From an uncultured bacterium (lineage in GTDB: Bacteria; Bacteroidota; Bacteroidia; Chitinophagales; Chitinophagaceae): a stretch of DNA of 64,000 nt. This document shows, one piece after another, positions 20,943 to 48,614 of this stretch. Each line of letters begins with the position of its first letter. The stretch's first letter is position 1. The stretch covers positions 38,686 to 102,685 of the forward strand of contig CAXBQH010000004.1 in NCBI GenBank assembly GCA_963977985.1. Reading direction: 5' to 3'. Made by a program: the position numbers and the translations under genes. Below the pieces are notes generated by a model. That model saw nothing but the letters and a program-made list of their open reading frames with translations, was not told the origin of the DNA and ran no database searches.

Positions 20943-21629
20943 CTATAATTTTTGAATACGAATATTTCTATAAGAAACTAGATCTCCGTGATCTTGTAGT
21001 GCAATATGCCCAGAGAATATTTTTCCAAAATCGGGCGATTCGCCTTTAGAAAATTTAGATCTTCTAATAAGTTCTTTCCAACTATCATCACCTACGTGAG
21101 TGCTCACTACGGTAACATCATTTAATATTAAATCTAATTTATCTTTTTTAAAGATGATATCAACTTTATTCCACTGATCATAAGGTTTTACAACACCTTC
21201 TTTACCTACAATTAAATCATATAAATTTCCTGCTCTATGGCTAATAATTTTTGCATCAGGATGTCCTTCATTATCCAACACTTGCATTTCTGGTCCCGTA
21301 TGCCAAGTGTTTTTATATTTACTAGGGTCGTCTTGTACAAAAAAGATAATACCGCTATTACCATTTTTTGAAATTTTCCATTCTAATTGTAAATGAAAAT
21401 CATTGAAACTTTCATCGGTTACAATATCACCTCCTTCTTTTCCTTCTTTTTTTAATGCTGGATCTAATACAATGGCACCCTCTTCTACTTTCCAAGCTCC
21501 CCCTACACTGGTTTTACCATAACTATGCCAGCCATTAGTAGTTTTGCCATCAAATAGGGGTATCCATTTTTGAGCATAATTGGAAGTAGCTATGAAGCTT
21601 ACTATATAAACAAAAAATATTTTTTTCAT
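20943..21629 (-). CDS. DUF1080 (3-keto-disaccharide hydrolase/hydratase family) secreted protein
   Basis: Signal peptide NYA-Q; PLFDGKT..GW, NSGIIF, GPEMQVLDN, GHIALQDHG...YRNIRIQKL. Confidence 0.9.
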   Translation of the reverse strand: MKKIFFVYIVSFIATSNYAQKWIPLFDGKTTNGWHSYGKTSVGGAWKVEEGAIVLDPALKKEGKEGGDIVTDESFNDFHLQLEWKISKNGNSGIIFFVQDDPSKYKNTWHTGPEMQVLDNEGHPDAKIISHRAGNLYDLIVGKEGVVKPYDQWNKVDIIFKKDKLDLILNDVTVVSTHVGDDSWKELIRRSKFSKGESPDFGKIFSGHIALQDHGDLVSYRNIRIQKL

Positions 21630-21691
21630 AAACTGTGTTTTAGTAATTCATTTAAATGATTTGAACAGAAATAATAATAATATAAATGTAT

Positions 21692-22090
21692 TTACTTTTT
21701 TAAGAGTAAAATGTATTTAATCATTTGTTCTACATCTTCTTGTTTTAATTGAGGATGTGGTGTCATTGGAATCGCGCCCCAGTTACCGCTACCACCTTTA
21801 ATTACTTTTGCTGCTAACATTTTAATATTAGCCTCCGTATTTTCATATTTGGCTGCTACATCTTTATAAGCAGGGCCAATATTTTTCTCACTTGTTTTAT
21901 GACAAGTTAAGCAATCACTTCCCGCGATGAGGGTTAAACCTTTTTGATAATCTGGATTATCAGCTAATGTATTTGCGCTAGAAGCAGTGGCTTCTTTTGC
22001 ACTTGTAGTTTTTGTTGCCTCAGTGGATCCACCTCCACCACAGGCGGTTGCTAAAATAGCCATAGTTACCATACATAAAACCTTCTTCAT
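21692..22090 (-). CDS. Lipoprotein c-type cytochrome (c551/c552-like)
   Basis: Lipobox LATA-C, Ser/Thr/Ala linker, CLTCH heme motif, GPAY, axial Met in WGAIPMTPH. Confidence 0.92.
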   Translation of the reverse strand: MKKVLCMVTMAILATACGGGGSTEATKTTSAKEATASSANTLADNPDYQKGLTLIAGSDCLTCHKTSEKNIGPAYKDVAAKYENTEANIKMLAAKVIKGGSGNWGAIPMTPHPQLKQEDVEQMIKYILLLKK

Positions 22091-22110
22091 AATACTTCTT
22101 TTTTAATAGT

Positions 22111-23163
22111 TTAAATACCTAAAATTTTCTTGTTATAAGATTCATCTGAACCTGTACTAGCAAAGTCATCAAATGCTTTCTCGGTTACTTTAATAATATT
22201 TTTTTGAATAAATACTGCTCCTTCAGCAGCACCTACTTCTGGATGTTTGATAGCACATTCCCATTCCATCACTGCCCAACCCTTGTAATTATAGGCAGCA
22301 AGTTTACTAAAAATACTTTTGAAGTCTACTTGTCCATCTCCTAAAGATCTAAACCTGCCAGCACGATCAATCCAATTTTGATAACCACCATACACTCCTT
22401 GTTTCGCACTAGGGTTGAACTCTGCATCTTTCACGTGAAACATTTTAATGCGATCGTGAAAAGCATCGATATATCCTAAGTAATCCATACATTGTAAAAC
22501 AAAATGAGAAGGATCATATAATAAACAAGCACGCTTATGTTGTTTGACTTTATCTAAAAACATTTCATAAGTGACTCCGTCGTGTAAATCTTCACCAGGA
22601 TGAATTTCATAACAAAGATCTACGCCTACATTATCAAACTCATTTAAAATTGGCATCCATCTTTTGGCAAGTTCAGTAAAACCAGTTTCCACTAATCCAG
22701 CGGGCCTTTGTGGCCAAGGATATACTGTATGCCATAATAAAGAACCACTAAAAGTAGCGTGTGCATTTAATCCTAAATTTTGAGAGGCTTTAGCTGCATA
22801 CATTAATTGTTGTACAGCCCATTGAGTTCTAGCTTTGGCATTACCGTGCACTTCTTTAGGGGCAAATCCATCAAATTGAGCATCATAAGCTGGATGCACT
22901 GCTACTAATTGTCCTTGCAGATGTGTAGATAATTCTGTAATCTCTAAACCTGCTTTAGCAACAATACCTTTGATTTCATCTGCATAGGTTTTGCTTTCAG
23001 CAGCTTTTTTTAAATCGATACATCTAGCATCCCAACTTGGAATTTGGACTCCTTTGAAACCCAAGCCTGCGGCCCATTTACAAATACTCTCTAAAGTATT
23101 GAAGGGCGCTTGATCACCCATAAATTGAGCTAAAAAAATGGCAGGTCCTTTGATTGTTGTCAT
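22111..23163 (-). CDS. Sugar phosphate isomerase/epimerase (IolE/xylose isomerase-like TIM barrel), cytoplasmic
   Basis: YEIHP, YDPSH, FHVKDAE, GDGQVDF, VMEWE metal ligands. Confidence 0.88.
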   Translation of the reverse strand: MTTIKGPAIFLAQFMGDQAPFNTLESICKWAAGLGFKGVQIPSWDARCIDLKKAAESKTYADEIKGIVAKAGLEITELSTHLQGQLVAVHPAYDAQFDGFAPKEVHGNAKARTQWAVQQLMYAAKASQNLGLNAHATFSGSLLWHTVYPWPQRPAGLVETGFTELAKRWMPILNEFDNVGVDLCYEIHPGEDLHDGVTYEMFLDKVKQHKRACLLYDPSHFVLQCMDYLGYIDAFHDRIKMFHVKDAEFNPSAKQGVYGGYQNWIDRAGRFRSLGDGQVDFKSIFSKLAAYNYKGWAVMEWECAIKHPEVGAAEGAVFIQKNIIKVTEKAFDDFASTGSDESYNKKILGI

Positions 23164-23173
23164 AATTTTATTT

Positions 23174-24340
23174 TTATATTACATAAGGTGTCCATTTCTG
23201 AGAGGACTGTGAAGAGGCAACTACATTATCTATAAATGCCATACCTCTGATGCCATCTTCAATACCAGGGAAATCTAACATTTCAGCAGTGGGTGTAGTA
23301 CCATCTATTTTACAACCCAAGGTTAAAGCAAAGTTGCGATAAATATTTGCAAATGCTTCTAAATATCCTTCTGGATGTCCGCCGGGAGTTCTCGTGTTGT
23401 GAATAGCAGTGGCAGATAAATGTGCTCCATAGTTTCCTCCAGCTCTTAATACTTGTGCAGGTTGATCTAACCATTTTATATGTAATGTATTAGGTTCGTG
23501 TTGCATCCATTCTAAGCCACCTTTTTCACCATACACTCTAATTTTTAAATTATTCTCTTCACCTGCAGCTACTTGTGATGCCATTAGTACTCCTTTGGCG
23601 CCATTGTCAAATTTTAACATCACAGAGCCATCATCATCTAATAATCTTCCCTCTACCATTGTATTTAATTCAGCGCATACATCGGTTATTTTAGAACCTG
23701 TAATATATTCTGCTAAATGTGCAGCGTGAGTTCCTATATCGCCCATAACAGAACTTTTACCAGATTTTTTAGGGTCGGTTCTCCAAGCAGCTTGAGTATT
23801 TCCTTCTTTTTCAGATAATTTACTCAACCAACCTTGTGCGTATTCCACCCATACTTTTCTAATTTTTCCAAATTTTCCTTCTCTTACCATTGCTTTGGCG
23901 TGTTTTACCATTGGATATCCAGAATAGGTATGCGTTAAACAAAGTAGTAAACCTGTTTCTTCTAATTTTTGTTTTAATTGTTTCGCTTCCTCTAAAGAAA
24001 AAGTAATGGGTTTTTCAATCACTACGTGAAAGCCGTGTTCTAGCGCCATCATTGCAGGTGCAAAATGTGCAAAGTTGGGAGTGACAATAGTAACAAAATC
24101 CATTCTTTGGTTCGCAGGAAGTGCAGCTTCTTTTTTTATCATTTCTTCAAAACTGGTATAAGTTCTTTCTTTGGGAAGAAACAAAGCTTCGCCGGAGGCC
24201 ATTGCCACTTCAGGTCTTACACTTAGTGCGCCACAACTAACTTCAATGAGGCCATCCATATTTGCGGCAATTCTGTGAATGGCTCCTATAAAGGCATCTT
24301 TGCCTCCACCTACCATTCCCATTCGTAATTTTCTATTCAT
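23174..24340 (-). CDS. Gfo/Idh/MocA family oxidoreductase, cytoplasmic
   Basis: GMVGGG..AFIG..H, IVTPNFAH, EKP, DIGTH, GHPEGY. Confidence 0.9.
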   Translation of the reverse strand: MNRKLRMGMVGGGKDAFIGAIHRIAANMDGLIEVSCGALSVRPEVAMASGEALFLPKERTYTSFEEMIKKEAALPANQRMDFVTIVTPNFAHFAPAMMALEHGFHVVIEKPITFSLEEAKQLKQKLEETGLLLCLTHTYSGYPMVKHAKAMVREGKFGKIRKVWVEYAQGWLSKLSEKEGNTQAAWRTDPKKSGKSSVMGDIGTHAAHLAEYITGSKITDVCAELNTMVEGRLLDDDGSVMLKFDNGAKGVLMASQVAAGEENNLKIRVYGEKGGLEWMQHEPNTLHIKWLDQPAQVLRAGGNYGAHLSATAIHNTRTPGGHPEGYLEAFANIYRNFALTLGCKIDGTTPTAEMLDFPGIEDGIRGMAFIDNVVASSQSSQKWTPYVI

Positions 24341-24516
24341 ACTGGATTGTTTTTTAAGCGTACAAAAACCGTTAATTGTGTCATAATAACACTTTCAGAC
24401 GGTTCTAGTAGCAATTTCCTTATTATTTTGCAAATAACCCCCTTTTTTAATCAAAAACTTTACAAAAAATAAGAAATAAAAATTATATTTATCGAACCAT
24501 TTAATCCGTACTTGCT

Positions 24517-25404
24517 ATGTCCACCAAAGTCAACAGGCGTAAGCTTATTAAACAAGTCATTACAGGTTCTGCAGCTATTGCTTCAAGTGCTGTAGTGCCT
24601 TCACCAATTTTAGCGGCAGTGAAAAATCAAAATACACCCCTTAAAGGAAATATTCAACATTCTGCTTGCAGATGGTGCTACGATCGTATTCCCATTGCAA
24701 CATTGGCAAAAAATTTTAAGCAATTAGGTATGGTGGGAATGGATTTAGTAGGTCCTTCCGACTGGAAAATTTTAAAAGAAAATAATCTTATTTCCACTAT
24801 GTGTAATGGTGCAGAAATAAGTTTAACTGAAGGTTTTAATACGCTACAATACCACGATAAATTAGTAAAAAATTATACCGATCATATTAATTATGTAGCA
24901 GATGCAGGTTATACGAATTTAATTTGTTTTTCTGGTAGTAGAAGAGGAATGGATGATGAAACAGGATTGAACAATTGTGTTACCGGTTTGAAAAAAATTA
25001 TGTCTCTTGCTGAAAAAAGAGGAGTAATGATTCATATGGAACTGCTCAATTCAAGAGTGGATCATAAAGATTATATGTGCGATAGATCTACTTGGGGTGT
25101 TGAATTATGTAAAAGACTAGGCTCACCCAATTTCAAATTGCTATTTGATATTTATCATATGCAAATAGATGAAGGAGATATTATTCATTCTATTAGAACC
25201 AATCATTCTTATTATGGACATTACCATACTGGAGGGGTACCTGGTAGAAATGAAATTGATGAAAGACAAGAATTATATTATCCCGCCATTATGCGCGCGA
25301 TTTTAGCCACTGGATTTAAAGGATATGTAGCACAAGAATTTATTCCTGCTGATAAAGATCCTATGGCATCCTTAGCTGCAGCCATTAAAATTTGTGATGT
25401 ATAA
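24517..25404 (+). CDS. Tat-exported hydroxypyruvate isomerase-like TIM barrel protein
   Basis: N-terminal NRRKLIK; MELLN, FDIYHMQ, HYHTGGVPGRNE, GYVAQEF. Confidence 0.85.
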   Translation: MSTKVNRRKLIKQVITGSAAIASSAVVPSPILAAVKNQNTPLKGNIQHSACRWCYDRIPIATLAKNFKQLGMVGMDLVGPSDWKILKENNLISTMCNGAEISLTEGFNTLQYHDKLVKNYTDHINYVADAGYTNLICFSGSRRGMDDETGLNNCVTGLKKIMSLAEKRGVMIHMELLNSRVDHKDYMCDRSTWGVELCKRLGSPNFKLLFDIYHMQIDEGDIIHSIRTNHSYYGHYHTGGVPGRNEIDERQELYYPAIMRAILATGFKGYVAQEFIPADKDPMASLAAAIKICDV

Positions 25405-25408
25405 AAAA

Positions 25409-25515
25409 TAAAATTTCAAAAAATAAAGTGTACAACTACAAAGTTCAAAAATTATAAAATTTAAATCAATAAAGTTCAAAATATAAAATTTCAAAAATAT
25501 AAAGTTCAAAATTAA
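25409..25515 (+). repeat. Degenerate tandem repeat, seven units of 14-16 nt (consensus TAAA[G/A]TT(T)CAAAA(A)T)
   Basis: Units start at 25409, 25424, 25439, 25455, 25470, 25484 and 25500. Confidence 0.65.
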
Positions 25516-25536
25516 TTCTAAATAAAAACAAGAAAT

Positions 25537-27216
25537 ATGGCAGCACAACAGTATGATGCAATTGTAGTAGGATCGGGCATTAGCGGCGGATGGGCAGCTA
25601 AAGAGCTAACACAAAAAGGATTAAAAGTTTTAATGTTAGAGCGAGGCCGAAACATTGAGCACATTAAAGATTATGTAAATGCTAATAAAGAAGCTTGGGA
25701 TTTTCCTCACCGTGGAACACGCACCCAGGAAATGATTAAAGACTATCCTGTTTTAAAAAGAGATTATCCTTTAAATGAAACCAATTTAGATTATTGGTGT
25801 TCAGATAAAGAGAGTCCCTATGTGGAAACTAAACGCTTTGATTGGTTTAGAGGATACCACGTGGGAGGTCGTTCCTTAATGTGGGGTCGTCAATCTTATC
25901 GTTGGTCCGATTTAGATTTTGAAGCCAATGCCAAAGATGGTCACGGAGTGGATTGGCCTGTTCGTTATAAGGACATTGAACCTTGGTATGATTATGTAGA
26001 AAAATTTGCAGGCATTAGTGGTAATCGCGATGGCCTTGCAGTTTTACCTGACGGACAATTTTTACCTGCTATGGATTTAACCTGCGTGGAGAAAGATGTG
26101 GCTGCAAGATTAAAAGAAGTATATAAAGGTACTCGTCATTTAATTATAGGACGCACTGCTAATATTACAGTTCCTCACGAAGGTCGCCCAGGATGTCAGT
26201 TTAGAAATAAATGTTGGTTGGGTTGTCCATTTGGTGGTTATTTTAGTACGCAGTCTTCTACTTTACCCGCGGCTATGGCTACAGGTAATTTAACTTTAAG
26301 ACCTTGGAGTATTGTAACTGAAATTAAATACGACAAAGATAAAAAACGCGCAACGGGTGTAATGGTATTAGATGCCGAAACCAATAAAACAATAGAGTAC
26401 AGCGCAAAAATTATTTTTGTGAACGCTTCAACTTTAAATAGTACTTGGTTATTGATGAACTCTGCTACTGATGTTTGGGAAGGTGGATTAGGAAGTAGCA
26501 GTAATGCTTTGGGTAAATATTTAATGGATCATCATTTGGGAGTGGGTGCTGGTGGAACGATAGAAGGATATGAAGATAAATATACTTATGGTCGTCGTGC
26601 CAATGGATTTTATATTCCTCGTTTTAGAAATGTAGGAGATGATAAACGCGATTATGTTCGTGGTTTTGGTTACCAAGGAAGCGGCTCTCGTCAAAACTGG
26701 AGAAGAGATGTAGCAGAATTTACCATCGGAGGTGATTTTAAAGACGCATTAACAGAACCCGGTAGCTGGACCATTGGAATGGGAGGTTTCGGTGAAATGT
26801 TACCCGATGAAACTAACAAGGTAACCTTAGATAAAAAAGTGAAAGATAAGTGGGGATTGAATGTCTTAAATATTGATTGCGAATTAAAAGAGAATGAAAA
26901 AAAGATGCGCAAAGATATTTTAGCAGATGCGCAAGAAATGTTAGAAAAAGCAGGTGTAAAAAATGTAAATGCACACGATGGAGATGGCACCCCAGGTAGA
27001 GGTATTCACGAAATGGGTACTGCTCGTATGGGTAAGGATCCTAAAACTTCGGTATTAAATGGAAATAACCAAGTATGGGATGCGCCCAATGTATTTGTTA
27101 CAGACGGATCTTTTATGGCAAGTTCATCTTGTGTGAATCCTTCTTTAACTTATATGGCATTTACTGCACGCGCTGCTGATTTCGCAGTAAAAGAATTAAA
27201 AAAAGGAAACTTATAA
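25537..27216 (+). CDS. GMC flavoprotein oxidoreductase (glycoside 3-dehydrogenase catalytic subunit-like)
   Basis: FAD motif VGSGISGG, GGRSLMWG, Cys cluster CQFRNKCWLGCP, HEMGTARMG, NPSLT; no signal peptide. Confidence 0.92.
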   Translation: MAAQQYDAIVVGSGISGGWAAKELTQKGLKVLMLERGRNIEHIKDYVNANKEAWDFPHRGTRTQEMIKDYPVLKRDYPLNETNLDYWCSDKESPYVETKRFDWFRGYHVGGRSLMWGRQSYRWSDLDFEANAKDGHGVDWPVRYKDIEPWYDYVEKFAGISGNRDGLAVLPDGQFLPAMDLTCVEKDVAARLKEVYKGTRHLIIGRTANITVPHEGRPGCQFRNKCWLGCPFGGYFSTQSSTLPAAMATGNLTLRPWSIVTEIKYDKDKKRATGVMVLDAETNKTIEYSAKIIFVNASTLNSTWLLMNSATDVWEGGLGSSSNALGKYLMDHHLGVGAGGTIEGYEDKYTYGRRANGFYIPRFRNVGDDKRDYVRGFGYQGSGSRQNWRRDVAEFTIGGDFKDALTEPGSWTIGMGGFGEMLPDETNKVTLDKKVKDKWGLNVLNIDCELKENEKKMRKDILADAQEMLEKAGVKNVNAHDGDGTPGRGIHEMGTARMGKDPKTSVLNGNNQVWDAPNVFVTDGSFMASSSCVNPSLTYMAFTARAADFAVKELKKGNL

Positions 27217-27241
27217 TTTATAATATTTTAAATACAATTTT

Positions 27242-27805
27242 ATGATGAATAGAAGAGAAGCCTTATCAAGAGTGGCCCTTATTATGGGAGGCACTGTATT
27301 AGGTGCAGAAGCTTTTTTATCCGGTTGTACTACGGGTGCCGCTAAAATTACTTTTTCAAAAGAGGATATTTCATTTTTAAATGAAGTAGCTGAAACTATC
27401 TTACCTGCTACACAAACGCCAGGTGCCAAAGAAGCAAAAGTGGGCGAGTTTATGACAGTGATTGTAAATGACTGTTATGAATCAAAAGACCAAACTGCTT
27501 TTATGGAAGGGATAAAAAAATTAAATGAAGCTTGTACTAAAGCAGTAGGTAAAAATTTTATGCAAGCCACTGCTGAACAACGCCATCAATTTTTAGTAGA
27601 TTTAGACAAAGAAGCTGCTGCTTTTCAAAAATCAAAAAAGCCAGATGAAACCAAGCACTATTTTACTATGATGAAAGAGCTTACCTTATGGGGATTCTTT
27701 AGCTCAGAACCTGGTGCTACCAAAGCTTTACGTTATGTTGCAGTTCCTGGAAGATACGAAGGTACGGTGCCTTATAAAAAAGGAGATAAGGCTTGGGCTA
27801 CTTAA
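27242..27805 (+). CDS. Gluconate 2-dehydrogenase subunit 3 family protein (Tat-signal partner of the GMC enzyme)
   Basis: NRREAL twin-arginine signal; ETILPAT.TPGAK; LTLWGFFSSE.GA. Confidence 0.9.
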   Translation: MMNRREALSRVALIMGGTVLGAEAFLSGCTTGAAKITFSKEDISFLNEVAETILPATQTPGAKEAKVGEFMTVIVNDCYESKDQTAFMEGIKKLNEACTKAVGKNFMQATAEQRHQFLVDLDKEAAAFQKSKKPDETKHYFTMMKELTLWGFFSSEPGATKALRYVAVPGRYEGTVPYKKGDKAWAT

Positions 27806-27895
27806 TATATATAGTAGATTCATTCATTAAATAAATGGTCAACTAGTTTTTATAAATAGTATCTCTCCCAACAAATAAACTTTTAAAACGATTGT

Positions 27896-28750
27896 ATGAA
27901 TAATTCAAGAAGAAAATTTTTGCGTCAAAGCGCTTTAGCAGGGGCAGCTTTCAGCTTGCCTTTTGGAAAAGAATTAATGGCAATGGCTGGAAAATCAAAA
28001 GCGATAGGTATTCAATTATGGACCGTAAAACAAGCTTTATATAAAGATACGCTGGGAGTGCTTAAACATTTATCTAAATGTGGGTATAAACAAATTGAAG
28101 GATTTGAAGGTGATTTAGGTATTTTTTGGGGTATGAAAAATACTGAATTGAAAAAAGTGTTAGATGATTTGGGAATGAAAATGGTTTCTTCTCATTGTAA
28201 CAACACCCAAGATTTTGAAAGAAAAGCAGCACAAGCAGCAGAGATAGGTATGAAGTATTTAATTTGTCCTCATAAAGGAGCACAAAAATCGATTGATAAT
28301 TTTAAGCGCTTCTCTGATGAGTTTAATGCTTGTGGTGAAATAACCAAGAAAAATGGTTTACGATTTGCATATCACAACCACGATTATTCATTTGTACCAA
28401 TGAATGGAATTGTACCACAGGATTTAATGATGCAATCTACTAATCCTGATACTGTAGATTTTGAAATGGATATGTACTGGACAGTAGCAGCAGGAGTAGA
28501 TCCTATTGGATATATGAAAAAATTCCCGAATCGTTTTAAGTTAGTGCATGTAAAAGATTTAGCTAAAACTTCTACTGGCATTGAATCTTGTATTATTGGA
28601 AAGGGAACTATTAATTATAAGTCTTTATTACCACAGGCAGCCGCACAGGGCGTACAATATTATATTGTTGAGCAAGAAGCGTATACTGGCACTTCAGAAT
28701 TAGATTGTGCTAAAGAGGATGCTGCTTATTTAAAAACACTTCAATGGTAA
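27896..28750 (+). CDS. Tat-exported sugar phosphate isomerase/epimerase TIM barrel
   Basis: SRRKFLRQ signal; GIQLWTV, YHNHDYSF, EMDMYW, HVKD, IVEQE. Confidence 0.88.
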   Translation: MNNSRRKFLRQSALAGAAFSLPFGKELMAMAGKSKAIGIQLWTVKQALYKDTLGVLKHLSKCGYKQIEGFEGDLGIFWGMKNTELKKVLDDLGMKMVSSHCNNTQDFERKAAQAAEIGMKYLICPHKGAQKSIDNFKRFSDEFNACGEITKKNGLRFAYHNHDYSFVPMNGIVPQDLMMQSTNPDTVDFEMDMYWTVAAGVDPIGYMKKFPNRFKLVHVKDLAKTSTGIESCIIGKGTINYKSLLPQAAAQGVQYYIVEQEAYTGTSELDCAKEDAAYLKTLQW

Positions 28751-28827: not shown

Positions 28828-31740
28828 ATGATAAATAAGTTAAAGCAACTTGCAAAAACATTGGAAGGTGATCTTTTTTTCGATAAAATGATCAAAACCT
28901 TGTATGCTACAGATGCTTCTAGTTATAGAGAGTTTCCCTTGGCTGTAGCCATACCAAAAACTCAGCAAGACATTGCAAAGCTTATTCAATTTGCATCTAC
29001 TCATCAAACATCTTTAATTCCAAGAACCGCTGGCACCTCACTTGCAGGACAAGTAGTGGGTAGCGGTATTGTGGTGGATGTCTCCAAGCATTTCAATAAA
29101 ATTTTAGAGCTCAATAAAGAGCAAGGTTGGGTAAGGGTAGAGCCAGGCGTTATTCGCGATGAATTAAATATGTTTTTACAAGAACACGGATTGTTTTTTG
29201 GTCCAGAAACTTCTACTGCTAATAGAGCGATGGTGGGTGGAATGGTGGGTAATAATTCTTGTGGCTCTAATTCTGTAGTTTACAAAAGTACCAGAGAACA
29301 TTTATTAGAAGTAAAAGCTTTTTTAAGTGACGGCACGCAGGCAGTTTTTTCAAGTGTATCTACCGATGCCTTTCATCAGAAATGTGATTTGAACACACTG
29401 GAGGGAAATATTTATAGATCGATGAGAGCTATGCTTAGCAACTATGAAAATCAAGTAGAGATAAAAAATCAATTTCCCAAAAAATCGATACTCAGAAGAA
29501 ATACAGGTTATGCTATAGATATTTTAGTAGACGCCGATCCCTTTACTGCCGGAGGGCCACCCTTTAATTTTTGTAATTTAATTGCTGGCTCTGAAGGAAC
29601 GCTGGCTTTTATTACTGAGATAAAATTAAATCTCGTGCCTATCCCTGCTAAAGAAGTAGGTTTATTGTGTGTGCATTTTAATAGTATTGATGAATCGCTC
29701 CGTGCAAATTTAATTGGTCTACAATTTCAGCCAAGTGCTAGTGAACTTATTGACCATTATATTTTAGAATGTACCAAAGAAAATGCCGAGCAAGCAAAGA
29801 ACCGATTTTTTGTACAAGGAGACCCAGGAGCTATTTTAGTCATAGAATTTGTCAGAGAAACTAAGGAGGAAATTTTGGAACTCACGCAAAAAGTGGAAGC
29901 AGCAATGCGTGCAGCTGGCTTGGGTTACCACTTCCCAGTGTTGTATGGTGCTGATGCAAAAAAAATATGGGCTTTGCGTAAAGCGGGATTAGGCTTACTT
30001 AGTAATTTACCAGGAGATGAAAAAGCGGTACCTGTTATAGAAGATACTGCAGTAGATGTAAACGATTTACCTGATTATATTCGTGAGTTTAATGAAATAT
30101 TAAAAAAGCACGGTCTTTATTCCGTGCACTATGCGCACGCAGGTTCGGGTGAACTTCATTTGCGTCCTATTATTAATTTAAAAACAGAGCAAGGGAATCA
30201 ACTTTTTAGAACCATAGCCCAGGAAGTAGCTACACTAGTAAAAAAATATAAGGGTTCTTTGAGTGGTGAACACGGAGATGGAAGATTAAGAGGTGAATTT
30301 ATTCAACAAATGGTGGGTGCTAAAAATTATGCTTTATTAGAAGAAGTAAAAAATATTTGGGATCCCCAACATATATTGAATCCAAATAAAATTGTGCATA
30401 CCCCTTCTATGAACTCTATGTTGAGGTATACGCCAGGACAATTCACACCAGCCTTTAAAACTATTTTTCGTTTTCATCAACAAAATATTTTACAACACGC
30501 CGAACAATGCAATGGTTCGGGAGATTGTAGAAAAACACATTTATCAGGAGGTACAATGTGTCCTTCTTATATGGCTACTCGCGATGAAAAAGATACTACT
30601 CGTGCAAGGGCCAACATACTCAGAGAATTTTTAACACACTCTGAAAAAGAAAATAGATTTGATCATAAAGAAATTTATGAAGTAATGAGTTTGTGTTTAA
30701 GTTGTAAAGCTTGTAAATCGGAATGTCCTTCTAATGTGGATATGGCTAAACTTAAAGCTGAATTTTTACAACATTATTATGACGCTAATGGAGTTCCTTT
30801 CAGAGCAAGGTTAATAGCCAATTTCACTAAAGCGGCTCAATTAGCTTCTATGGCCCCGCGTATATATAATACTATTATTAGTAACCCCCTCACTGCAAGT
30901 GTAGTTAAATTATTTTCTGGTTTTGCCTTACAAAGATCAATGCCAAAAATAGCCATTCAAACCCTTCAAGCCTGGTATAAAAAAAATTATAAAGCTCCTT
31001 CCACTCCCATAAAAAAACTGTATTTATTTTGTGATGAGTTTACCAATTACAATGATGCACCTATAGGTATTAAGGCCATTGAATTATTGCATACTCTGGG
31101 CTATGAAGTTATTATTCCTTTTCATTTGGAAAGTGGTAGAACTTGGTTATCGAAAGGTTTAGTTAGAAAAGCTAAAAAAATTGCCAATCAAAATATTGAA
31201 CTTTTAAGTTCTTTGATAAGTGCTTCCACTCCTCTCATTGGCCTGGAACCCTCTGCCATACTAACTTTCAGAGATGAATACCCCGACCTTGCCACAGACG
31301 AAAATGTAGCAGCTGCACAACATTTAGCTAAGCATAGTTTTTTTATTGACGAGTTTTTAGCAAGTGAAATGCAGGCAGGAAATATTACAAAAGATCAATT
31401 CACTGATCAAGCCAAATCTATTTTATTGCACGGACATTGTCAACAAAAGGCAGTGAGCTCTTTATCGGATACGGTAAAAGTACTTTCATTTCCTACAAAT
31501 TTTAAAGTTGATACTATTGCTTCAGGTTGTTGCGGTATGGCGGGTTCTTTTGGATATGAAAAAGAACATTATAAAGTTTCAATGAATATTGGAGAGTTGG
31601 TATTGTTTCCCAAAATAAGAGCACATCATCACAATTGTACAATTGCTGCTGCAGGTACCAGCTGTCGTCATCAGATTAAAGATGGTACGGGTGTTCAAGC
31701 TCTACATACAGTAGAAATACTACATACTGCGTTAAGATAG
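28828..31740 (+). CDS. FAD-linked oxidase fused to 4Fe-4S and CCG domains (YdiJ/GlcD-GlcF-like 2-hydroxyacid dehydrogenase)
   Basis: RTAGTSLAGQ, GEHGDG, CNGSGDC...MCPS, CLSCKACKSECP, HGHCQQK, GCCGMAGSFGY. Confidence 0.9.
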   Translation: MINKLKQLAKTLEGDLFFDKMIKTLYATDASSYREFPLAVAIPKTQQDIAKLIQFASTHQTSLIPRTAGTSLAGQVVGSGIVVDVSKHFNKILELNKEQGWVRVEPGVIRDELNMFLQEHGLFFGPETSTANRAMVGGMVGNNSCGSNSVVYKSTREHLLEVKAFLSDGTQAVFSSVSTDAFHQKCDLNTLEGNIYRSMRAMLSNYENQVEIKNQFPKKSILRRNTGYAIDILVDADPFTAGGPPFNFCNLIAGSEGTLAFITEIKLNLVPIPAKEVGLLCVHFNSIDESLRANLIGLQFQPSASELIDHYILECTKENAEQAKNRFFVQGDPGAILVIEFVRETKEEILELTQKVEAAMRAAGLGYHFPVLYGADAKKIWALRKAGLGLLSNLPGDEKAVPVIEDTAVDVNDLPDYIREFNEILKKHGLYSVHYAHAGSGELHLRPIINLKTEQGNQLFRTIAQEVATLVKKYKGSLSGEHGDGRLRGEFIQQMVGAKNYALLEEVKNIWDPQHILNPNKIVHTPSMNSMLRYTPGQFTPAFKTIFRFHQQNILQHAEQCNGSGDCRKTHLSGGTMCPSYMATRDEKDTTRARANILREFLTHSEKENRFDHKEIYEVMSLCLSCKACKSECPSNVDMAKLKAEFLQHYYDANGVPFRARLIANFTKAAQLASMAPRIYNTIISNPLTASVVKLFSGFALQRSMPKIAIQTLQAWYKKNYKAPSTPIKKLYLFCDEFTNYNDAPIGIKAIELLHTLGYEVIIPFHLESGRTWLSKGLVRKAKKIANQNIELLSSLISASTPLIGLEPSAILTFRDEYPDLATDENVAAAQHLAKHSFFIDEFLASEMQAGNITKDQFTDQAKSILLHGHCQQKAVSSLSDTVKVLSFPTNFKVDTIASGCCGMAGSFGYEKEHYKVSMNIGELVLFPKIRAHHHNCTIAAAGTSCRHQIKDGTGVQALHTVEILHTALR

Positions 31741-37820: not shown

Positions 37821-38732
37821 ATGCAAATGTACCAATTATTTGATAGTAGGCCTCCTTTGAGAATGGCCCTTTTTTTAGGTATCACAGGCATAGCTATGTT
37901 GGCAGGTGCCTTCATAAGTTTTTCTATTGTTTGTGCAATTTTACAAATTCCATTTTCCTCTATTCAAAATATATTATTGCAACCTAAGTATGCCACTATG
38001 GCTCAATTGGCCAATGCACTTGCTTCTATCATTGCTTTTGGTTTGCCCAGTGTACTACTTGCATTTTTTATTAAAGGAAATTGGATACACAATATGGGTT
38101 TTAGACCTATTAAATCCTATCCCTCCATAGTGGTGGTTATTTTATTAGCGCTAACAGGATTACTATTAAGTGGCGCTTTAGGTTCAGTCACCGAAAAAAT
38201 TCCAATCCCTGCTCATTTTAAAAATTGGGCCATCAGCTTGGAAGACCAATACAAAAAAGCAATGATCTCGATGACCCATATGTCCTCATTGAAAGATCTA
38301 TTTTTTACATTAACAGCAGTAGCTATTATTCCTGCCATAGTGGAAGAAGTTTATTTTAGAGGTACGCTACAAAAAATTTTATTGGATTGGACAGGTAAGC
38401 CTTTTATAGCAATTATAATAACTGCCATTTTTTTTAGTGCTTTTCATTTTTCTTATTTTGGTTTTTTATCCAGATTAGCTTTAGGCGCTATATTGGGTTA
38501 TATTTATCATTATTCTAAAACTATTTGGCTGCCAATTTTGCTTCACTTTGTAAACAATGGAATTGCGGTAGTAACTTTATACTTATTCAGAAATAGTGCA
38601 ACACCCGTAGAAAAAATAATGGATGATAATTTACCCATTTATTGGGGAGTGGTAGCGCTCATAGGTATTTATTATTTATTCATTCAACTTAAAAATTATT
38701 ATATAGATGCAGGATTGGAAAAAAATATTTAG
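37821..38732 (+). CDS. CPBP/Abi family intramembrane metalloprotease
   Basis: EEVYFRG, FSAFH, HFVNN; multiple TM helices; start uncertain (37821, 37827 or 37863), and the track start at 37764 overlaps dusB. Confidence 0.88.
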   Translation: MQMYQLFDSRPPLRMALFLGITGIAMLAGAFISFSIVCAILQIPFSSIQNILLQPKYATMAQLANALASIIAFGLPSVLLAFFIKGNWIHNMGFRPIKSYPSIVVVILLALTGLLLSGALGSVTEKIPIPAHFKNWAISLEDQYKKAMISMTHMSSLKDLFFTLTAVAIIPAIVEEVYFRGTLQKILLDWTGKPFIAIIITAIFFSAFHFSYFGFLSRLALGAILGYIYHYSKTIWLPILLHFVNNGIAVVTLYLFRNSATPVEKIMDDNLPIYWGVVALIGIYYLFIQLKNYYIDAGLEKNI

Positions 38733-47762: not shown

Positions 47763-48614
47763 TTAATCCCAGGTTTCTTCTTCAGCTTTCATTTTTTTAT
47801 GGGCCCATCTGGATACAAAAATGCTACACTCAAATAAAGTATATAAAGGAATAAATACAATGGTTTGACTATACCAGTCTGGACTAGGCGTTATAAATGC
47901 AGCTACAAATAAAATAATGACTACAGCATATTTACGGGTAGTACTTAAAAATTGTGGTGTGATAAACCCAATTTTAGTTAATAAAAATACTATCACAGGT
48001 AATTCAAAAGCAATACCACAACCTAAAATTAAGTTGGTTAAGTTATCCAAATAGTCAGCAAAAGTGGGTATGGTAGTGATAGCACCTCTAGATCCTAGTT
48101 GAAAGCCTGCCAAGAAATTAAATGTAAAAGGCCCCAAGACTAAAAATCCAAAAGCGGCACCCATAAAGAAAAAGAAAGAAACCCAAAAAATCATAAACCT
48201 AGTATTTTTAATTTCTTTTTCTTTCAAAGCGGGTTTTACAAAAGCCCATATTTGATAAAAGATATAAGGAAAAGCTACTATGAGTCCTCCCACAAAAGCC
48301 ATACTAATACTACTTAAAAATTGTCCACCGAAAGTGGTGCTTTGTAATGATACTTTTACGGGAGGCATACAAAGTGAATCTCCTAAATGTAAAAAATGAC
48401 TTAATCTACAAAATGCTCTATAAGTGATAAAGTCTGGATTTAAGGGACCCGTAATTACATAGTCCATTACCCAATCACGATAAATAAAAATAATAATGGA
48501 GGTAACTAATATTGAAATTAATGAACGAATAATGGTTCCTCTTAATTCTTCTAAATGATCGATGAAAGACATCTCAGATTCATCGTTTTTCTTAAATCGG
48601 TCAAATAATGCCAT
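47763..48614 (-). CDS. tatC: Twin-arginine translocase subunit TatC
   Basis: MSFIDHLEELR, FVKPAL, FELP, AFITPSPD. Confidence 0.95.
   Translation of the reverse strand: MALFDRFKKNDESEMSFIDHLEELRGTIIRSLISILVTSIIIFIYRDWVMDYVITGPLNPDFITYRAFCRLSHFLHLGDSLCMPPVKVSLQSTTFGGQFLSSISMAFVGGLIVAFPYIFYQIWAFVKPALKEKEIKNTRFMIFWVSFFFFMGAAFGFLVLGPFTFNFLAGFQLGSRGAITTIPTFADYLDNLTNLILGCGIAFELPVIVFLLTKIGFITPQFLSTTRKYAVVIILFVAAFITPSPDWYSQTIVFIPLYTLFECSIFVSRWAHKKMKAEEETWD

Follow-up and report, generated by a model that had tools for sequence, protein, structure and literature searches.

An uncultured member of the Chitinophagaceae carries a cluster of eight genes that is very probably a GlycDH-type locus, built around a GMC-type flavoprotein, for the non-hydrolytic 3-keto-glycoside pathway, with the steps of the pathway divided between two compartments. 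The window analyzed here is a stretch of 64,000 nucleotides (nt), positions 38,686 to 102,685 of contig CAXBQH010000004.1 (assembly GCA_963977985.1), and the listing of its open reading frames (ORFs) places the cluster at 20943-28750, in two divergent arms of four genes each. A first-pass annotation of this DNA had described the eight ORFs, the two arms, and a set of named domains and export signals, and all of these were present where it had put them. It had also proposed a series of oxidation, elimination, hydration, and reduction, which is backed by direct comparison with the characterized enzymes GlycDH, AtHYD, Gfo, BT1/AL1/AtOGE, and BT2/AL2. Our reading is based on homology, export signals, conserved catalytic residues, and synteny; the substrates, the direction of flux, the intermediate that crosses the membrane, the co-regulation of the arms, and the role of one exported barrel (Hyi-like) are what we infer.

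The proposed order of events is as follows. The GMC flavoprotein, loaded with flavin adenine dinucleotide (FAD) and probably a 3Fe-4S cluster, would fold in the cytoplasm and leave it by twin-arginine translocation (Tat), piggy-backed on a lipoprotein-like subunit 3. In the periplasm it would oxidize the C3 hydroxyl of the non-reducing sugar of a glycoside, and the electrons would reach a terminal oxidase by way of a monohaem lipoprotein cytochrome c. The 3-keto-glycoside would then lose its aglycone by 1,2-elimination, catalyzed by a TIM barrel of 284 amino acids (aa) for beta-linkages and by a DUF1080 protein for alpha-linkages; the DUF1080 protein could also hydrate the elimination product. 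Either 2-hydroxy-3-keto-glucal or 3-keto-glucose would be imported, by a transporter encoded outside the cluster. Once in the cytoplasm, 2-hydroxy-3-keto-glucal would be hydrated to 3-keto-glucose by an AtHYD orthologue, and a Gfo/Idh/MocA enzyme would reduce 3-keto-glucose to glucose with reduced nicotinamide adenine dinucleotide (phosphate), NAD(P)H. The Hyi-like barrel, a conserved but uncharacterized fifth enzyme, would act on a periplasmic 3-keto intermediate. By homology and signal reading, the parts that mark a locus of the GlycDH type are all here: a GMC orthologue, a small subunit with a Tat signal, a TIM-barrel eliminase, and adjacent genes for a cytoplasmic hydratase and a Gfo enzyme.

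Predicted enzymes of the two arms

Domains and motifs were assigned from matches to Pfam and NCBIfam profiles and from reading of signal peptides and motifs in the ORF translations. At least 591 loci with relatives of the GMC protein came out of a scan that took one genome for each species. The best 80 were examined; almost all of these were labelled Chitinophagales or unclassified Bacteroidota.

The GMC flavoprotein (559 aa; 25537-27216, forward strand; PF00732/PF05199) is 70% identical over residues 1-559 (E = 0) to GlycDH of Rhizobium sp. GIN611, an enzyme that oxidizes O- and C-glucosides selectively at C3 (PMC10628242). This homology supports its assignment as a GlycDH orthologue, the catalytic subunit of a glycoside 3-dehydrogenase. 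The GlycDH reference was taken from Suppl. Table 6 of that paper, the supplement sequences of which were machine-read with a few errors, so that the identities to GlycDH, Gfo Oxo, and AtOGE given here are slightly underestimated. The GMC protein is also a full-length homologue of the large subunits of the Fe-S/FAD fructose and glucose dehydrogenases (7W2J, 6A2U). It contains an FAD motif, GSGISG, at residues 12-17 and a Cys-rich stretch, C220-x5-C226-x3-C230. We take a stretch of this kind to bind the 3Fe-4S cluster in the fructose and glucose dehydrogenase complexes, and the cofactors of the GMC protein are probably FAD plus 3Fe-4S. Loading with cofactors would account for a need to leave the cytoplasm by Tat hitch-hiking.

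The GMC protein lacks a signal peptide, and 25 nt separate its gene from that of subunit 3, a Gluconate_2-dh3 protein (187 aa; 27242-27805, forward; PF13618, E = 1.9e-39) that has a Tat signal. The Tat motif of subunit 3, NRREAL, has its arginine pair at residues 4-5 and is followed by LSGC at 26-29; the SGC stretch was seen again in the relatives examined. Subunit 3 is probably exported by Tat as a lipoprotein, taking the signal-less GMC protein with it and tethering it to the membrane; a comparable small TAT protein was co-expressed with GlycDH (PMC10628242). A search of the PDB found no relative of subunit 3 among solved structures. The third component would be the monohaem lipoprotein cytochrome c (132 aa; 21692-22090, reverse; PF00034, E = 5.9e-9), with a lipobox (LATAC) and a single haem motif, CLTCH, at residues 60-64. 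Its gene sits between the DUF1080 and hydratase genes in 46 of the 80 related loci. The glucoside 3-dehydrogenase of R. radiobacter uses a monohaem cytochrome c as its acceptor (PMC9915066), and by analogy the 132-aa protein is predicted to be the electron acceptor of the dehydrogenase. The cluster thus encodes all three parts of a dehydrogenase of the LacABC type (GMC, subunit 3, and cytochrome c), as had been recognized at first reading.

Two exported proteins are the candidate lyases. The 284-aa barrel (27896-28750, forward; Tat motif SRRKFLR) matches the AL1/BT1 lyases (PDB 8TCD/8TCR, 8TCS, 8TCT) at E = 1e-31 to 2e-30 and AtOGE (8BVK) at E = 4.5e-16, with 24% identity to the latter. Across 35 orthologues there is no variation at H100, H160, H162, D192, W195, H218, E259, or E261, which are the counterparts of the metal and substrate residues of AL1/BT1 (10.1101/2024.03.25.586180). 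Its sequence places the barrel, at family level, among the metal-dependent TIM-barrel 3-keto-glycoside beta-eliminases, and we predict that it is a periplasmic 3-keto-beta-glycoside 1,2-lyase of the BT1/AL1/AtOGE type. AtOGE itself is active on 3-ketocellobiose and inactive on 3-ketomaltose (PMC10628242).

The DUF1080 protein (228 aa; 20943-21629, reverse; Sec signal peptide) matches PF06439 across the whole profile (E = 2e-51) and the structures 8TDA/8TDE (BT2/AL2), 8RR2, and 9FBE at E of about 4e-40. All 32 orthologues aligned share residues N91, E114, Q116, Y137, K192, Q212, and H214; these fit the channel residues of BT2 (10.1101/2024.03.25.586180) by pattern and spacing, not by alignment. 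In the BT/AL systems of the same study, the TIM barrel is the beta-lyase and the DUF1080 protein is both alpha-lyase and hydratase. The window protein is predicted to be of this BT2/AL2 type, a periplasmic 3-keto-alpha-glycoside 1,2-lyase that is also a 2-hydroxy-3-keto-glucal hydratase.

The two remaining proteins of the left arm have no signal peptide, and their genes are 10 nt apart. The 350-aa barrel (22111-23163, reverse; PF01261, xylose-isomerase-like) aligns over residues 1-350 with residues 1-349 of a 2-hydroxy-3-keto-glucal hydratase, PDB 8RO4 (E = 1.4e-169, about 70% identity), and is 74-94% identical to its counterparts in Chitinophagales loci. We took 8RO4 to be AtHYD of A. tumefaciens, on the grounds that it has the same length and function as AtHYD in PMC10628242. 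Homology supports the assignment of the 350-aa barrel as an AtHYD orthologue and thus a 2-hydroxy-3-keto-glucal hydratase, a better description than the earlier label of IolE-like; the IolE model gives 65 bits, where its cut-off is 290. The Gfo/Idh/MocA oxidoreductase (388 aa; 23174-24340, reverse) is 44% identical over 376 residues (E = 4e-99) to 'Gfo Oxo' of A. tumefaciens and matches PDB 3V5N at E = 1e-104. Together with NADH, AtOGE, and AtHYD, Gfo Oxo converts 3-keto-phlorizin to glucose (PMC10628242); the window enzyme is predicted to be an NAD(P)H-dependent 3-keto-glucose reductase. The first-pass annotation had held that the roles of three TIM barrels could not be assigned. That is so for the Hyi-like barrel only, as the 350-aa and 284-aa barrels can be assigned by homology.

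The Hyi-like barrel and its link to the dehydrogenase

The remaining barrel (295 aa; 24517-25404, forward) carries a Tat motif, NRRKLIK. Neither its arginine pair, R7-R8, nor a tetrad, E175-D211-H237-E274, varies among 35 orthologues, and the tetrad lines up with the metal and catalytic residues of D-psicose 3-epimerases. Among family models the barrel is matched best by those for 2-oxo-tetronate and hydroxypyruvate isomerases (OtnI/Hyi in NCBIfam), far under the cut-offs (84 bits against 325 for OtnI). The folds nearest to its AlphaFold model (predicted local distance difference test, pLDDT, 80.7) are 3NGF, the D-psicose 3-epimerases, and YcjR (6WN6); this fold search confirmed the superfamily and fits epimerase, isomerase, and lyase readings alike, and C-glycoside lyases appeared only lower in the list. 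The 3-keto-D-glucoside 4-epimerase YcjR and the ketose 3-epimerases (6WN6, 2HK0, 3VNI) have the same TIM fold and E-D-H-E tetrad. However, they are cytoplasmic and only 16-22% identical to the Hyi-like barrel, which carries a Tat export signal and has its best sequence matches among Hyi/OtnI-type proteins (3NGF), not among these epimerases.

Cleavage of C-glycosides had been included in the initial reading of the cluster, and we found no support for it. The cluster contains no two-subunit lyase of the DgpBC/CarBC type, nor an ORF for the small beta subunit of such an enzyme, and none of the three barrels matched DgpB or CarB in sequence at E <= 1e-3. In the fold search with the Hyi-like model, DgpB and CarB showed generic fold similarity only, at ranks 22-38.

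In 70 of the 80 loci, the gene immediately upstream of GMC encodes an orthologue of the Hyi-like barrel. Hyi-like orthologues were found in 63 of 301 sampled Bacteroidota genomes; of the 62 besides the window's own, 61 also contain a GMC orthologue. The two genes are within 12 kb of each other in 33 of these 62 genomes and less than 300 bp apart in 28, where they are co-directional in 13 and on opposite strands in 15. They are also adjacent in replicons of Xanthomonas, Halomonas, Paracoccus, and Palleronia. Between Bacteroidota, Gammaproteobacteria, and Alphaproteobacteria the barrel is 52-59% identical, and it is found beside the dehydrogenase gene in two arrangements. Linkage across these three groups is strong evidence that the Hyi-like barrel is functionally coupled to the dehydrogenase.

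Its reaction can be proposed only tentatively. Possibly, although we would not wager on it, this fifth enzyme of the pathway epimerizes or isomerizes 3-keto-glycosides in the periplasm, at C4 or C2, for instance. Such an enzyme would convert 3-keto-galactosides or 3-keto-mannosides to gluco-configured substrates for the lyases, and could account for the use of lactose by GlycDH/LacABC systems. The main alternative is that it is a third lyase or hydratase.

Conservation, known systems, and rival explanations

The 18 Chitinophagales loci that have all eight genes inside the fetched flanks share, without exception, a single gene order and strand pattern (----++++), and on this evidence the clustering of the eight genes is not due to chance. 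The loci do vary in two respects. A gene for a transporter of the major facilitator superfamily (MFS) lies between the Gfo and Hyi-like genes in 21 of the 38 full-length loci with both flanking genes and is lacking in 15. These inserted MFS proteins are 406-432 aa long in the survey loci L015, L017, L028, L040, L042, and L047, and the Terrimonas locus (L040) has two. In addition, of the 37 full-length loci in which both genes were found, 9 have further GMC paralogues, one to four of them, inserted after the first GMC gene and before the only gene for subunit 3; L047 has five tandem GMC paralogues with one subunit 3 gene. With its single GMC gene and no MFS gene, the cluster in the window represents the minimal form of the locus. 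An MFS_1 orthologue, 74% identical to the cluster MFS of relatives, is encoded elsewhere in the genome (contig C1:32123-33361) among unrelated, amidohydrolase-like genes, and the transporter gene appears to have become separated from the cluster in this lineage.

The same parts were found outside the phylum. A replicon of Xanthomonas sacchari (NZ_CP010410.1) has all eight in one locus, including a small cytochrome c, a 285-aa BT1-like barrel, and a 350-aa barrel, along with a nucleoside-permease-type MFS and a LacI regulator. A replicon of Paracoccus liaowanqingii (NZ_CP040764.1) has seven, with no cytochrome c listed, plus an ATP-binding cassette (ABC) transporter and LacI. These plasmid or chromid clusters share the part list of the window but have another gene order, and they are annotated only generically. 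Compared with them, the window proteins are 68-71% identical for GMC, 64-65% for the hydratase, 56-58% for the Hyi-like barrel, 38-41% for subunit 3, 30-42% for Gfo, and 25-29% for the two lyases.

The pathway itself is already published (PMC10628242; 10.1101/2024.03.25.586180; PMC9007349); studies of Agrobacterium and of gut Bacteroidales established it between 2021 and 2024. The GlycDH operon of A. tumefaciens and Rhizobium GIN611 (PMC10628242; 8BVK, 8RO4) contains the same families and carries out the four-step chemistry predicted here, with identities to the window of 70% for GMC, about 70% for the hydratase, 44% for the reductase, and 24% for the beta-eliminase. Both have a small Tat subunit of the hitch-hiker type and a cytoplasmic hydratase and reductase. 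Beyond that operon, the window has the DUF1080 lyase/hydratase, the lipoprotein cytochrome c, the Tat Hyi-like barrel, and the division into two divergent arms, and its beta-lyase is nearer the Bacteroides and Alistipes enzymes than AtOGE.

The loci BT2156-2160 of Bacteroides thetaiotaomicron and AL1-AL5 of Alistipes (10.1101/2024.03.25.586180) share with the window the BT1-type beta-lyase, the BT2-type DUF1080 protein, and a cytosolic Gfo enzyme. Their oxidant, however, is a Tat-exported Gfo/Idh/MocA enzyme (BT3/AL3) with tightly bound NAD, whereas that of the window is a GMC/subunit 3/cytochrome c system linked to the respiratory chain. No oxidant of the BT3/AL3 type is encoded in the cluster; its sole Gfo enzyme is signal-less and scores 32 bits on the BT_2158 model NF058561 (cut-off 750). 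They also encode a DUF6377 regulator, which the window cluster does not. The window therefore resembles BT2156-2160 in its working but is not a member of that architecture.

In Caulobacter crescentus, as in the window, a three-component LacABC dehydrogenase is encoded beside a DUF1080 protein with a signal peptide; the likeness is one of component lists (PMC9007349). Clusters that combine LacABC with DUF1080 are described from Caulobacter, Pedobacter, and Indibacter, and their fitness phenotypes were seen on lactose, on salicin, and on further glycosides (PMC9007349). That study read DUF1080 as a hydrolase, whereas we read it as a lyase and hydratase. Finally, the Fe-S/FAD dehydrogenases (fructose dehydrogenase, FAD-dependent glucose dehydrogenase, and gluconate 2-dehydrogenase) share the Cys-rich region of the window GMC, but their membrane-bound trihaem cytochrome c is not encoded in the cluster, where the cytochrome is a 132-aa protein with a single CxxCH.

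Several other readings of the cluster were weighed. Instead of splitting glycosides, it might break down a sugar in free or anhydro form, such as levoglucosan, 1,5-anhydroglucitol, or glucose via 3-keto-glucose, with the TIM barrels acting as isomerases or hydratases on the keto-sugar. The best NCBIfam match of the Gfo enzyme is indeed levoglucosan dehydrogenase, the enzyme also matches PDB 6A3F at E = 3.6e-24, the levoglucosan operon of Bacillus smithii is similarly organized (PMC10628242), and PDB relatives of the GMC protein oxidize free fructose or glucose. We nevertheless consider this reading improbable. The match to levoglucosan dehydrogenase reaches only 114 bits against a cut-off of 650, and the Gfo enzyme is nearer, at 44%, to the 3-keto-glucose reductase of A. 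tumefaciens; GlycDH, to which the GMC protein is 70% identical, is active on O- and C-glucosides; and the cluster conserves two types of periplasmic lyase, both of which have kept their active sites intact.

It is very improbable, in our judgement, that cleavage after oxidation is hydrolytic, with the DUF1080 protein a true 3-keto-disaccharide hydrolase and the 284-aa barrel an isomerase. Nuclear magnetic resonance data on BT2/AL2 revealed lyase and hydratase activity and no hydrolysis, BT1/AL1 are beta-lyases (10.1101/2024.03.25.586180), and the residues conserved in both pairs are invariant in the window orthologues. In favor of hydrolysis stand the Pfam name of PF06439, '3-keto-disaccharide hydrolase', and the proposal of DUF1080 as a 3'-ketolactose hydrolase in PMC9007349. 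The arms could also be unrelated neighbors, the left a cytoplasmic inositol-like or keto-sugar pathway and the right an independent periplasmic dehydrogenase. They are transcribed separately, no shared regulator is visible, and the two cytoplasmic enzymes are weakly similar to IolE and IolG. Yet both sets are linked in fixed order in Chitinophagales and, rearranged, in Xanthomonas and Paracoccus; the A. tumefaciens homologues of both arms form one operon and act sequentially in vitro (PMC10628242); and the left arm itself includes the periplasmic DUF1080 protein and the cytochrome c. Mere neighborhood of the arms strikes us as scarcely credible.

A GlycDH-type pathway for 3-keto-glycosides is the reading that we retain, with the following points weighing against it. 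None of the eight proteins reached an NCBIfam equivalog cut-off, and for that reason the NCBIfam names were not adopted. Both lyases are just 24-36% identical to characterized enzymes, so that their preference for one anomer or the other is extrapolated. With the cytochrome c as query, tblastn gave no hit in either the Xanthomonas or the Paracoccus locus; the protein is poorly conserved outside the order. Lastly, no transporter and no regulator gene was found among the ORFs of the cluster, and consequently the co-regulation of the arms and the import of an intermediate are assumed. The pathway had been called complete at first reading, which stands for its enzymes and fails for the transporter and regulator.

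Genome context and significance

The 176-bp, AT-rich region between the arms (24341-24516) presumably holds the promoters of both. A sigma-70 scan returned 41 promoter-like sites against 33 +/- 6 expected, with a model that does not cover Bacteroidota promoters, so that no promoter was called, and a terminator scan returned 1 terminator-like site against 4.7 expected. The 132-bp, AT-rich spacer between the Hyi-like and GMC genes (25405-25536) holds a degenerate tandem array with a period of ~15 nt, made up of TAAAGTTCAAAAT and TAAAATTTCAAAAA units. In most relatives the spacer before the GMC gene is 27-55 nt long and unrelated, and one locus (L001) has a different array of 153 nt with GTAATTAAATAAG units. 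The array was rejected as a regulatory element because it is not conserved among relatives; it looks like a lineage-specific, fast-evolving AT-rich expansion.

Two neighboring genes were also rejected as members of the cluster. The downstream gene (28828-31740) is syntenic in 1 of the 80 loci; its product is a 970-aa FAD/Fe-S oxidase, the N-terminal 600 residues of which score 634 bits (cut-off 1350) on the model for the D-2-hydroxyglutarate dehydrogenase YdiJ, and the C-terminal part matches GlpC. The upstream tadA is a housekeeping neighbor. About 19 kb downstream of the cluster lies tatC (47847-48560, reverse; PF00902, E = 7.6e-60), in single copy in the genome; Tat is needed for four of the cluster proteins. 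The genome also encodes two haem-copper oxidases.

The description of the host as a low-GC, aquatic member of the Bacteroidota held up: the GC content is 0.31-0.37, and the closest relatives are metagenome-assembled genomes of lake and river Sediminibacterium. At 2.03 Mb and 99.58% completeness, compared with mostly 2.9-5.5 Mb in the relatives sampled, the genome is streamlined for a member of the Chitinophagaceae, yet it has kept several oxidative glycoside modules. There are at least three further GMC genes, 52%, 50%, and 32% identical to that of the cluster. One region (C8:26000-43000) encodes a GMC protein, a GH30, a probable GH3, an NrtR-like regulator, a BT1-like Tat barrel, a Gfo enzyme, and an MFS of the nucleoside-symporter type. 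Another (C24:1-9000) has a GMC and subunit 3 pair adjoining two Gfo-type enzymes. A set resembling BT2156-2160 (C46:5000-10000) consists of an MFS, a double DUF1080 protein, a Tat-Gfo enzyme, and a putative TIM-barrel-like ORF that has an RR N-terminus and is truncated by the end of the contig. A double-DUF1080 protein is also encoded beside a Tat-Gfo enzyme at C1:20765-24216.

The cluster joins an oxidant, hydratase, and reductase of the Agrobacterium type with both lyases of the Bacteroides type. Since a streamlined freshwater genome keeps the full respiratory-linked pathway, along with further GMC and DUF1080/Tat-Gfo modules, the oxidative cleavage of glycosides looks like a core means of living on dissolved plant and algal glycosides in lakes. 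From one phylum to another the GlycDH, AtHYD, and Hyi-like proteins retain 56-71% identity, a pattern that points to a module shared by horizontal transfer. Among the conserved exported enzymes of this module, the Hyi-like barrel is a concrete target for biochemistry.

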